From the NCBI GenBank assembly GCA_964570465.1, contig CAZMYG010000001.1, positions 4,174-68,173 of the forward strand: DNA of 64,000 nucleotides, given 5' to 3'. This DNA comes from an uncultured Planctomycetales bacterium (lineage in GTDB: Bacteria; Planctomycetota; UBA1135; CAZMYG01). Position numbers and translations under genes: made by a program. The notes below the pieces were generated by a model. That model saw only the letters and a list, made by a program, of their open reading frames with translations. It did no database searches and had not been told where the DNA came from. Positions 34,529-35,849 of the stretch are shown here, in pieces. The first letter of the stretch is position 1. Every line of letters starts with the position of its first letter.

Positions 34529-34598
34529 GTTGAGATGGTGTAACAGTAGCATACCAGCACGCAAGCTGAAGGTGCCGGTGCGATTCCGGTTATCGACC
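34529..34598 (+). ncRNA. tRNA-like element D (non-canonical)
   Basis: GTTGAGA/TATCGAC acceptor-like pairing (one mismatch); T-arm GCCGG-TGCGATT-CCGGT; no 5-7-5 anticodon arm found. Confidence 0.25.
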
Positions 34599-34707
34599 AG
34601 ACCAAACCTGCTTATGACATGGTCATCACGGGCTGCATACACTTTTTGGAGACGCTATGAGCTACATATCGTTTATCTGGTTTAAGGGCTGGAAAGGTGG
34701 GAATATC

Positions 34708-35109
34708 ATGTCCCAGCTTTCGCGTCCCGAGCCTGATGGTGAATGGGAGTTCACCATGAGATTTCGGCACTACGTGGACGACAAGCACCACGAATCCGAT
34801 GACATGAAGAGCGGGCTGACAATGAAGGCCCCTGGGTCCAAATCTGAAGACGAAGTGATCGCTGAAGTGCGCGACACTGTCGATAAGGCTAGTGATGTAT
34901 TTGGGCCGGTCTGGGGAGACCTGCAAGTTGATGACTTCATCGACTTGAAGTGTGAAAGCAACGATCCCAAGCTGATGATCGAGCTGATGTCTCGTGATTG
35001 GTGTCACGTCAAGATGCTGCACGGCGACGAAGCCAAAGAAATGACCGAAAAGGTCAGGTCAGGTGAAGCACGATCGTGGTTTCAACACGGAAGTAAACTT
35101 GACGAATAA
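34708..35109 (+). CDS. hypothetical acidic protein
   Basis: Track ORF 34657..35109; ATG at 34708 has AAGGTGGG 6 nt upstream. Confidence 0.55.
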   Translation: MSQLSRPEPDGEWEFTMRFRHYVDDKHHESDDMKSGLTMKAPGSKSEDEVIAEVRDTVDKASDVFGPVWGDLQVDDFIDLKCESNDPKLMIELMSRDWCHVKMLHGDEAKEMTEKVRSGEARSWFQHGSKLDE

Positions 35110-35240
35110 GATGATCGTCGATAGACTCGGTTACTCCGCCTACCACCTCCGCCCTAGCCGAATGACAGCGGCGAAAGGATAGCGGGGCCGAGTCTCCACG
35201 GCCATGACACTCCAACGCTCTCCTGGGCGAGGTGTTTTTC

Positions 35241-35402
35241 TTGAAGTTTTACGAGTTCATCTACCGTATAGCCGGCAAGTGGAAGTGGGAGACGCGCTGG
35301 CTTGAATGTGACCAAGAAGCTTACGACTTGGTGCAGCACTTTGGCGGTGACGCCGACTGCATCATGGTTAAGTGTGGTCGCAGAGTTCTGGTCGATGATT
35401 AG
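35241..35402 (+). CDS. possible 53-aa protein
   Basis: Below track cutoff; TTG (or GTG at 35232) after GAGG; LKFYEFIYRIAGKWKWETRWLECDQEAYDLVQHFGGDADCIMVKCGRRVLVDD looks protein-like. Confidence 0.3.
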   Translation: MKFYEFIYRIAGKWKWETRWLECDQEAYDLVQHFGGDADCIMVKCGRRVLVDD

Positions 35403-35475
35403 CGTGGGGAGGCTGTTGGCAGCCCATTGAGTCCCATAAGCTCAATTTTCGCCGGTTCGATTCCGGCCCCCACGC
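35403..35475 (+). tRNA. tRNA-like gene, anticodon CAU (Met/Ile2-type), atypical core
   Basis: 73 nt; CGTGGGG/CCCCACG acceptor; T-arm GCCGG-TTCGATT-CCGGC; loop CCCATAA; but 6-7 bp anticodon stem and very short D-arm (GGCTG-TTGG-CAGCC). Confidence 0.5.
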
Positions 35476-35478
35476 CTG

Positions 35479-35553
35479 CCTGGTGATGCAGCCGCCTGAG
35501 TCGTAGCGTGAGGAGCTGCGAAGCGTCTGCATTCCTCCACCAGGCTATTTTTT
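35479..35553 (+). terminator. long hairpin plus T-run (terminator-like)
   Basis: CCTGGTG+ATGCAG pairs with CTGCAT...CACCAGG, followed by CTATTTTTT. Confidence 0.5.
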
Positions 35554-35642
35554 GGATCGTAGTGGAGTCTCTGTGTAAACAGGACTAGGCTGGGTGAACT
35601 CCCGCCACGCCGAAAGGTCCGGTTCAATTCCGGTGCGATCCA
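35554..35642 (+). ncRNA. tRNA-like element B (89 nt, non-canonical core)
   Basis: GGATCGT/GCGATCC acceptor (7 bp incl. one G-U), discriminator A; T-arm CCGG-TTCAATT-CCGG; interior folds as GNRA-type hairpin CTGT-GTAA-ACAG and GGAGT/ACTCC instead of D and anticodon arms. Confidence 0.35.
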
Positions 35643-35778
35643 TTTGTCTCTGGCGAGCGTAAGCTCACTCATGGTGCGAGCATACCGGCGTAGGCTGTAG
35701 TGGCCTGCGTGACGGTCAGTTCATGTGAGAGTCCTGGAGGATTTCTGGTTTATTCGTCACACAGCGCACGGAAACCAG

Positions 35779-35849
35779 GCCGGAGACAATTATGCCGAGT
35801 GAGGCAGGCAGCCATCCTAGGTACCGGGGTTCGATTCCCCCACCCGGCC
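35779..35849 (+). ncRNA. tRNA-like element C (71 nt, non-canonical core)
   Basis: T-arm GGGG-TTCGATT-CCCC, GCCGG/CCGGC acceptor-like pairing (5-6 bp); no clean D or anticodon arm; contains GAGGCAGGCAGCC. Confidence 0.3.

Follow-up and report, generated by a model that had tools for sequence, protein, structure and literature searches.

What are the short elements with tRNA-type acceptor and T arms but aberrant cores that lie behind a retron-clade reverse transcriptase (RT) gene in contig CAZMYG010000001.1, assembled from an uncultured Planctomycetales bacterium? We analyzed a stretch of 64,000 nt of this contig (positions 4,174 to 68,173 of the forward strand, hereafter the window), which by its gene content is a section of a tailed phage genome. 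An initial annotation had placed four such elements there and had considered divergent phage tRNAs, decayed tRNA copies, decoys for nucleases and RT-associated structures as explanations. All four (E1 to E4) were present as placed, on the + strand. However, the cluster had been drawn too small, as two more irregular elements (E5 and E6) and a tRNA-Gly gene belong to the same island, which extends over 34.5-40.7 kb and lies on the + strand throughout. The island holds seven tRNA-derived genes, which arose partly by duplication; four of them fold stably but are irregular, two are decayed, and tRNA-Gly alone is canonical.

Identification of the tRNA island

Evidence for tRNA ancestry came from Rfam matches of E1 and E5, an ARAGORN call for E2, the alignment of E4 with a tRNA-Thr gene, the variable arm of E3 and the 3' end of E5. 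Duplication was indicated by two repeats. The T arm CCGG-TNCNATT-CCGG, noticed in three elements at the outset, is indeed common to E1, E2 and E3 (repeat family D5), and a 29-nt repeat with 76% identity joins E1 and E3 across the variable region and T arm (repeat family D6).

A strict geometry test required 7/7 acceptor pairs directly abutting the T arm, a T stem of at least 4 pairs and a TTCRA loop. It returned four sites in the window, all of them on the + strand and within the island, compared with 0.72 expected from dinucleotide shuffles. E2 and E3 passed this test, and E1 failed it (6/7 acceptor pairs, loop TGCGATT). Since a 5/7 acceptor, as in E4, is at chance level (~19 such sites are expected per window), E4 was accepted as real by homology only.

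Pairing in acceptor stem and T stem was 7/7 and 5/5 in E2, E5, E6 and tRNA-Gly, 7/7 and 4/5 in E3, 6/7 and 5/5 in E1, and 5/7 and 4/5 in E4. Among the island members, tRNA-Gly was the only one with a fully normal anticodon arm (7-nt loop, U33, 5-bp stem), and none of the irregular members E1, E2, E3, E5 and E6 had a canonical D arm (3-4-bp stem, 7-11-nt loop with GG). The fold z-scores of E2, E3, E5 and E6 ranged from -2.4 to -4.8. The elements occupy gaps between + strand open reading frames (ORFs), mostly one per gap, with E2-E4 together in a single gap.

No single standard finder saw more than three of the seven genes. ARAGORN made just two calls (E2, as tRNA-Met(cat), and tRNA-Gly), and Rfam at gathering thresholds (29 bits for tRNA, RF00005; 47 bits for tRNA-Sec, RF01852) made three (E1, E5 and tRNA-Gly); only tRNA-Gly was seen by both. 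E2 (<27.8 bits), E3, E4 and E6 did not reach the tRNA threshold. As for the suspicion that these programs would recover the four original elements as ordinary tRNAs, two were called (E2 by ARAGORN and E1 by Rfam) and two were not. Because finders miss members of such an island, the tRNA content of phages can be badly undercounted.

An isolated T-arm-like hairpin (GAGGG-TTCAAAT-CCCCC, 39352-39368, + strand) was also observed in the 293-nt gap 39110-39403. It has no convincing acceptor partner and is possibly another tRNA remnant.

Table 1. Elements of the tRNA island and other features of the window
Feature	Position	Strand	Basis or remark
E1, degenerate tRNA-like gene	34529-34598	+	Rfam tRNA model, 32.4 bits, model positions 1-71
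E2, irregular tRNA(CAU)	35402-35475	+	ARAGORN tRNA-Met(cat) at 35403-35476
Long imperfect hairpin, then TATTTTTT	35478-35553	+	-36.3 kcal/mol, z -4.12
E3, class-II-like tRNA mimic, 89 nt	35554-35642	+	Strict geometry scan; fold z -3.95
E4, decayed Thr-like tRNA	35779-35849	+	Homology of 3' end and full-length alignment
E5, irregular tRNA-like gene	38486-38557	+	Rfam tRNA model, 36.1 bits
E6, tRNA-like element, 145 nt	39945-40090	+	T-loop motif search, then extended geometry scan
Canonical tRNA-Gly(UCC)	40572-40642	+	ARAGORN; Rfam 66.1 bits
Portal, large terminase and major head genes	1-19.5 kb	-	Followed by a long block of + strand genes
RavA-like MoxR ATPase	27312-28427		Upstream of island
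ViaA-like VWA protein	30395-31912		ViaA match 7e-12
DUF6744 protein	31875-32951		Upstream of island
Retron-clade RT, 277 aa	33498-34331		PADLOC RT_III-A 4e-44
Serine recombinase, small resolvase/invertase type	36438-37298		Begins ~590 bp downstream of E4

Structures of the individual elements

E1 is probably a decaying tRNA copy, because its cloverleaf is weak compared with the minimum free energy (MFE) fold (-4.1 versus -19.4 kcal/mol) and it folds no better than shuffled sequences (z -0.56). The acceptor stem contains one mismatch and is extended outward by G-1:C73 and two further pairs, the D arm has 4 weak pairs and a 7-nt loop without GG, and the T arm is GCCGG-TGCGATT-CCGGT. ARAGORN did not call it. 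The D and anticodon arms of E1 had been thought to be swapped for unrelated hairpins; this does not apply, as all 71 positions of the Rfam model align. The defect is the 6-nt anticodon loop, ACGCAA, which is carried by a 4-bp stem with one mismatch.

For E2, a clean cloverleaf was obtained as the MFE fold (-38.5 kcal/mol, z -4.76). Its acceptor stem is 8 bp long when G-1:C73 is included; it further has a 1-nt linker, a D stem of 5 bp closed by the 4-nt loop TTGG, a 4-nt variable region and a canonical T arm. The anticodon arm, a 7-bp stem with CAU in the loop CCCATAA, was as first described, as was the 4-nt D loop; C33 takes the place of U33, a residue that is near-universal in tRNAs. The top Rfam match of E2 was tRNA-Sec (27.8 bits, E 0.03), under the threshold for tRNA-Sec and tRNA models alike. 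E2 may have retained the reading of AUG.

The long hairpin with a T-run that had been reported between the second and third elements is real. It stops exactly where E3 starts and looks like a terminator of the intrinsic type. A simple terminator scan did not list it, and the hairpin exceeds the stem and loop limits of that scan.

E3 has all acceptor pairs, and counting A8-U81 and U-1:A73 brings the stem to 8-9 bp. Where the D arm would be, there is a hairpin of 8 bp with the loop GTAA; the arm in the anticodon place has 6 bp and a 6-nt loop (TGAACT), and the T arm has a 4-bp stem and the loop TTCAATT. What had been described here as unrelated hairpins in fact includes a class-II-type variable arm, GCC-GAAA-GGT, which resembles the variable arm of phage class II tRNA-Leu. 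The five-arm fold (-38.9 kcal/mol) is 1.6 kcal/mol apart from the MFE fold (-40.5 kcal/mol). This value applies to E3 drawn as 8/4, with A8-U81 and a 4-bp T stem; drawn as 7/5, with a U-U mismatch, it is -35.5 kcal/mol. No program recognises E3, and in Rfam it gave just a 16.4-bit tRNA-Sec match limited to the acceptor and T arms.

E4 retains 5' GCCGG and 3' CTAGGT...GGGGTTCGATTCCCCCACCCGGC, with broken D and anticodon arms. An alignment with an Actinomycetota tRNA-Thr(CGT) spans its full length, the middle being degraded, and the 3' 23-mer of E4 is found exactly in three tRNAs of metagenome-assembled genomes (MAGs) from three different phyla. Rfam sees the T arm alone, and the fold z-score is -0.96. 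To judge from its sequence, E4 is a tRNA pseudogene. A Planctomycetota MAG tRNA that ends in these 23 nt (locus L110, 5639-5710) has the anticodon UUA, which is of ochre-suppressor type.

E5 combines a complete acceptor stem (plus C-1:G73) and a canonical T arm with a 5-bp D stem closed by a 4-nt loop (GAGG). Its anticodon arm has a 4-bp stem and an 8-nt loop, CTTTCAAT (as RNA CUUUCAAU), in which one could read UCA, a quadruplet anticodon or, with one U bulged out, UUC. The variable regions of E2 and E5 are 4-7 nt long. E5 had a fold z-score of -3.87 and no ARAGORN call, and its 3' 21-mer is shared exactly by tRNA-Leu and tRNA-Met genes of phages.

E6 fills the gap between two ORFs and was undetected by ARAGORN and Rfam. 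Besides its complete acceptor stem, it has a 7-bp D stem with a 7-nt loop and a T arm that pairs perfectly, CCAGG-TTCAAGT-CCTGG. A long composite arm ends in a hairpin of anticodon type, CCTGA-CTTAAAA-TCAGG (UAA; 7-nt loop, U33), and the element contains one further hairpin. The MFE fold includes the acceptor, D and T arms, and fold energies were between -56 and -61 kcal/mol (z -2.38). E3, E5 and E6 are probably stable RNAs that are unable to decode normally.

The sole ordinary tRNA of the island, tRNA-Gly, is also the sole part of it that matches tRNA genes of GenBank phages; a BLAST search of 38470-40660 against these phages matched tRNA-Gly alone.

Origin of the island

We consider it fairly probable that this is a phage tRNA island which arose by local duplication, and in which the acceptor/T half was kept while the anticodon branch drifted or was remodelled, leaving tRNA-Gly as the sole ordinary decoder. 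Local duplication of tRNA genes would have built the island among early genes of the same strand, and the elements would be transcribed together with these neighbors. Host RNase P and 3' processing enzymes, which mainly read the acceptor/T-arm half of their substrates, could then excise them. This half appears intact in E2, E3, E5 and E6. The anticodon branch, in turn, would have been altered to give 6- or 8-nt loops and a 7-bp or far longer stem, with the D arm converted to a long stem with a tetraloop, and E1 and E4 would be copies in decay. Most elements presumably cannot decode, and selection, where present, would act on the acceptor/T half. Of the explanations considered at the outset, divergent phage tRNAs and decayed copies are therefore the ones that gained support, E2, E3, E5 and E6 being well-folded irregular derivatives and E1 and E4 looking decayed. 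It is also in line with this explanation that unrelated phage contigs (L025, L027 and L121) hold tRNA-like elements whose anticodon arm is aberrant or absent.

Several observations do not fit this explanation well. E2, E3, E5 and E6 are unlike in sequence, yet all have 5-8-bp D stems, three of which are capped by tetraloops. Together with the paired -1:73 position, these long D stems represent more order than plain decay predicts, which hints at selection for a specific non-canonical shape. The pair G-1:C73 occurs in E1, E2 and E4, compared with 1 of 48 control tRNAs from fetched loci, the one being tRNA-His; it was given limited weight, being a post hoc observation in which two of the three elements, E1 and E2, are paralogous. 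The terminator-like hairpin lies directly upstream of E3, so that co-transcription of E3 and E4 needs either read-through or a promoter, and a promoter scan found none. Finally, no homolog of the irregular elements was found by BLAST against GenBank phages or by exact-pattern scans of IMG/VR and JGI metagenomes. The E3 acceptor plus T arm had 0 matches in the JGI metagenomes, the E2 3' end had 0 matches in IMG/VR, and the E5 pattern recovered 3' 21-mer matches in IMG/VR but no homolog of the whole element. A comparison with relatives had been proposed as a source of covariation evidence; no relatives of the irregular elements were found that could provide it.

A complementary -1:73 pair of any kind is present in all of E1-E5. 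However, 48% of the 48 control tRNAs have one, mostly U:A, and the idea that its presence in all five is significant was dropped.

Possible selected mimics

It is possible, if doubtful, that E2, E3, E5 and E6 are instead non-decoding mimics under selection, which might serve as decoys or sponges for tRNA-targeting nucleases or tRNA-binding enzymes, or as RNase P/Z punctuation of mRNA, much as mitochondrial tRNAs punctuate polycistronic transcripts. The perfect acceptors, intact T arms (5/5 in E2, E5 and E6, and 4/5 in E3) and strong z-scores despite non-decoding branches are in line with this idea, and so are the two GNRA tetraloops of E3, the long-D-stem architecture common to members that differ in sequence, the presence of one element in most same-strand ORF gaps (with E2-E4 sharing one) and the excess of six irregular members over one canonical tRNA. 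In addition, a proposed role of phage tRNAs is to counter anticodon nucleases (PMC10264068). However, conserved relatives were not found in GenBank phages or in the IMG/VR and JGI scans, and the window has no recognisable tRNA-repair or tRNA-modifying genes. E1 and E4, moreover, are clearly degenerating, so selection in the island is not uniform.

A more specific proposal, which we put forward only tentatively, is that the phage maintains a family of non-decoding RNAs with the shape of tRNA-Sec or allo-tRNAs, either as a defence sponge, as mRNA punctuation or as a partner of the MoxR-VWA-DUF6744-RT module encoded upstream. Members of such a family would have an acceptor of 8 bp, in many cases ending in G-1:C73 as in tRNA-His, together with a long D stem and an anticodon branch of free form and 20 to ~95 nt. 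They would undergo processing, and perhaps aminoacylation, in the manner of tRNAs while serving a different end.

Comparable elements were detected in other phage contigs. Two related contigs carry homologous elements (L025, 736-805; L027, 1611-1715) whose acceptor and T arms are identical, whose D arm is canonical and whose anticodon branch has 19 nt in L025 versus 54 nt in L027. Both follow a VWA-like gene and lie 1.3-2.2 kb upstream of an RT homolog. In L001, a 99-nt element (6185-6283) is located between the VWA and DUF6744 genes. Its acceptor is fully paired (7/7), its D stem of 7 bp is closed by a 4-nt loop and its T arm is TTAGG-TTCGATT-CCTAA; Rfam and ARAGORN did not detect it. An unrelated IMG/VR phage contig (L121, ~5715-5785) has canonical acceptor, D and T arms, with 11 nt replacing the anticodon arm. 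The last example suggests that tRNA-like elements with an aberrant anticodon branch are simply common and under-annotated in phages.

Other features were noted in this set of contigs. A 65-nt element without a D arm, with a 7/7 acceptor and a perfect T arm, occurs in L074 (951-1015), 2 kb upstream of a distant RT homolog, and directly follows a terminator hairpin and T-run, like E3. L025 also contains tandem hexamers of GGTGAC/GGTTAC type (1335-1453), which gave spurious Rfam matches to microRNA precursors.

Possible unusual decoders

It is rather improbable that the irregular elements are working decoders of an unusual kind, like allo-tRNAs or frameshift suppressors. E2 would then read AUG, possibly charged with His via G-1:C73, E5 would read a quadruplet or GAA/UGA, and E6 would read UUA/UUG. 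The 7-nt CAU loop and MFE cloverleaf of E2, the canonical-looking CTTAAAA loop of E6 and the loop CTTTCAAT of E5 could be read this way, and 8/4 and 9/3 allo-tRNAs are translationally active in E. coli, with 8/4 tRNAs also present in phages (PMC5389517). However, the loops of E1 and E3 have only 6 nt, E2 combines C33 with a 7-bp stem, and the arm of E6 is many bp too long. The 7-bp anticodon stem of E2 (alongside its C33) and the overlong arm of E6 change the distance from the anticodon to the CCA end. Long ORFs of the window are intact under the standard code, giving no indication of stop-codon or other recoding, and irregular G-1 tRNAs were charged yet unused in translation in the study of Mukai 2017 (PMC5389517).

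Relationship to the reverse transcriptase

We regard it as very improbable that the adjacent retron-type RT, or the MoxR-VWA-DUF6744-RT module, has the elements as its non-coding RNA partners, be it as primer, template or scaffold. E1 does start only 198 nt past the RT stop codon, after a structured region (z -2.2). In addition, RT homologs of L001, L025 and L027 have irregular tRNA-like elements 1.3-2.2 kb upstream, and in L022 the RT gene is followed by a T-arm-like hairpin. Because the elements near the module in the first three of these loci are themselves irregular, a small probability of a tie is kept alive.

To place this arrangement in context, about 90 loci encoding RT homologs were examined, 80 of them from IMG/VR; densities were calculated from 86. 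At the closest RT loci (L001, L023, L024, L005 and L006), the RT gene is not followed by a tRNA-like element; these include L001, whose RT is 48% identical and which has the identical MoxR-VWA-DUF6744-RT order. With ARAGORN, Rfam and the geometry scan combined, tRNA-like elements within 3 kb were found in just 4 of the 80 IMG/VR RT loci (L025, L027, L074 and L076). Strict matches numbered 5 per 547 kb at RT loci and 1 per 212 kb at control phage loci, rates that are indistinguishable. The position of the elements varies between lineages, and the MoxR-VWA-DUF6744 module is also seen with neither an RT nor a tRNA-like element. RT-linked tRNA-like structures as a general rule were therefore ruled out over these loci, and the suggestion that the cluster is RT-associated gained no support. 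A primer binding site of retroviral style was likewise ruled out, as the window holds no complement to the 3' end of any element. A functional tie is not supported, and the position of the island next to the RT gene probably reflects gene order and not functional pairing.

The interval between the RT gene and E1 (34390-34528, + strand) contains an 11-bp hairpin, GGTCTTCAGCT...AGCTGAAGACC, nested in ATAACCAGG...CCTGGTTAT (z -2.2), which is not conserved in relatives. It could be a non-coding RNA of the RT itself or a terminator-like element.

A 13-mer, GTGCGNTTCGCCG, was found at 34386-34398 of the window and in L001 (8546-8558), L023 (1738-1750), L024 (1381-1393) and L026 (2544-2556). In four loci it lies 14-55 nt past the RT stop codon, and in L026 it is upstream of the RT gene. 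Read as codons for V-R-F-A-G, the 13-mer has its variable base at a third position, and a called gene of 167 aa in L001 contains it in frame. This third-position variation and the frame in L001 fit a small conserved ORF, and the 13-mer was dropped as a candidate RT-associated RNA motif. In the window, its frame continues the RT frame beyond the TAA stop and ends after 31 codons. The site is likely a small conserved gene truncated in the window or a read-through extension of the RT stop codon.

Two other RNAs were found next to RT homologs. A group I intron (68 bits) is located just past the RT homolog in L065 (3957-4219). An ARAGORN 'tmRNA' after the RT homolog in L057 (4400-4805) was considered as a tRNA-like shell with an insert and rejected, as it is a genuine tmRNA (90 bits).

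Finally, we regard it as very improbable that the elements are attP-type tRNA gene fragments left by site-specific recombination: the identity of the E4 3' 23 nt with bacterial tRNA 3' ends, the nearby serine recombinase gene and the common generation of partial tRNA genes by integrating elements (PMC9897764) would fit, but the acceptor stems of E2, E3, E5 and E6 are complete and fully paired, the tRNAs matching E4 come from three phyla and indicate no host, the recombinase is not a tyrosine integrase, and for E4 itself a fragment was ruled out, as it keeps its 5' acceptor strand and a degraded middle and aligns over its full length as a decayed full copy.

Comparison with known tRNA-like systems

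The island resembles the tRNA clusters of T4, T5 and mycobacteriophages, in which tRNA genes of the same strand are found among small ORFs of unknown function. Its paralogous members and the similarity of tRNA-Gly to tRNA-Gly genes of GenBank phages are further common features, and phage tRNA clusters can include low-scoring or pseudo-tRNAs. It differs in the ratio of irregular to canonical members, which here is six to one, in that several members are invisible to ARAGORN and Rfam, and in that one is 145 nt long.

A second comparison is with allo-tRNAs and irregular tRNA polycistrons (PMC5389517). Allo-tRNAs were first spotted as sub-threshold matches to the tRNA-Sec model, and the irregular tRNAs described by Mukai 2017, some of which occur in phages, are marked by tetraloops on long D stems and by lengthened acceptor and anticodon stems; those bearing G-1 are charged by HisRS and unused by the ribosome (PMC5389517). 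Shared features are the long tetraloop-capped D stem of E2, E3 and E5, the 8-bp acceptor, the longer anticodon stems, the variable arm of E3 and its possible 8/4 split, G-1 in irregular tRNAs with non-His anticodons, and a tRNA-Sec model as the top Rfam match of E2 and E3. However, E2 and E5 have no long variable arm and that of E3 has only 3 bp and GAAA; loops have 6 nt in E1 and E3 and 8 nt in E5; and the discriminator of E3 is A instead of G/U. In addition, the acceptor branch of E2 and E5 is 7/5, or 8/5 if the outward -1:73 pair is counted, which gives 13 bp and not 12, and no recognisable toxin-antitoxin genes are located near the island. Because the variable arm, the G73/U73 discriminator and the loop size do not agree, the island elements are classed, by described features, as a variant and not a member of this class.

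E2 is like bacterial tRNA-Sec (RF01852) in its 8/5 acceptor branch, in its long D stem, which carries a 4-nt loop, and in the extension of its anticodon stem, and E3 can be drawn as 9/4. However, the scores of E2 (27.8 bits) and E3 (16.4 bits) are below the gathering score of 47, neither has UCA in a 7-nt loop, and E2 lacks a long variable arm. The acceptor end of tRNA-His is similar in that G-1 is paired with C73 in E1, E2 and E4; unlike tRNA-His, none of these has a GUG anticodon.

Bacterial Y RNAs of YrlA type are tRNA-like RNAs encoded beside Ro60/Rsr, and here too a tRNA-mimicking RNA is near the gene of a VWA-domain protein. In this case, however, the VWA protein is ViaA-like, a partner of the RavA/MoxR ATPase; it showed no TROVE domain and no match to Ro60 in PDB, and no Rfam Y RNA match was obtained, which ruled out this relationship. 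The msr-msd RNA of retrons likewise adjoins a retron-clade RT. Unlike it, the island elements are not conserved beside RT homologs and have tRNA and not msr/msd architecture.

If the well-folded irregular members are expressed, they would represent a natural set of RNAs that keeps the processing and charging half of tRNA and varies the decoding half. This would bear on how phages handle tRNA-targeting defences, on the purpose of the irregular tRNA polycistrons described in 2017 and on the design of orthogonal tRNA scaffolds. If they are merely decaying copies, the island would be a snapshot of the birth and death of tRNA genes in a phage.

Phage context

Judged by the following searches, the phage appears to be an orphan. 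Neither region 34300-36000 nor the capsid protein had any BLAST match among GenBank phages, the flanking ORFs (150 aa, 175 aa and DUF6744) retrieved nothing as IMG/VR queries, and the 150-aa ORF between E1 and E2 had no homolog among 5.8 billion proteins. The gene matching phrog_3657 (41971-43107) was used as another route to relatives and retrieved 15 loci, but no tRNA island like this one was found in them. Outside the window, the region was recovered only from two short Logan contigs, both 100% identical.

The RT, besides its PADLOC assignment, matched the NCBIfam retron St85 family (2e-40), under the cut-off of that model. In some lineages (L113/L115), the MoxR-VWA-DUF6744 trio occurs without an RT. 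The complete set, consisting of a RavA-like MoxR, a ViaA-like VWA protein, DUF6744 and a short retron-clade RT, is a phage module that recurs in L001, L023, L024, L039, L044 and L065.

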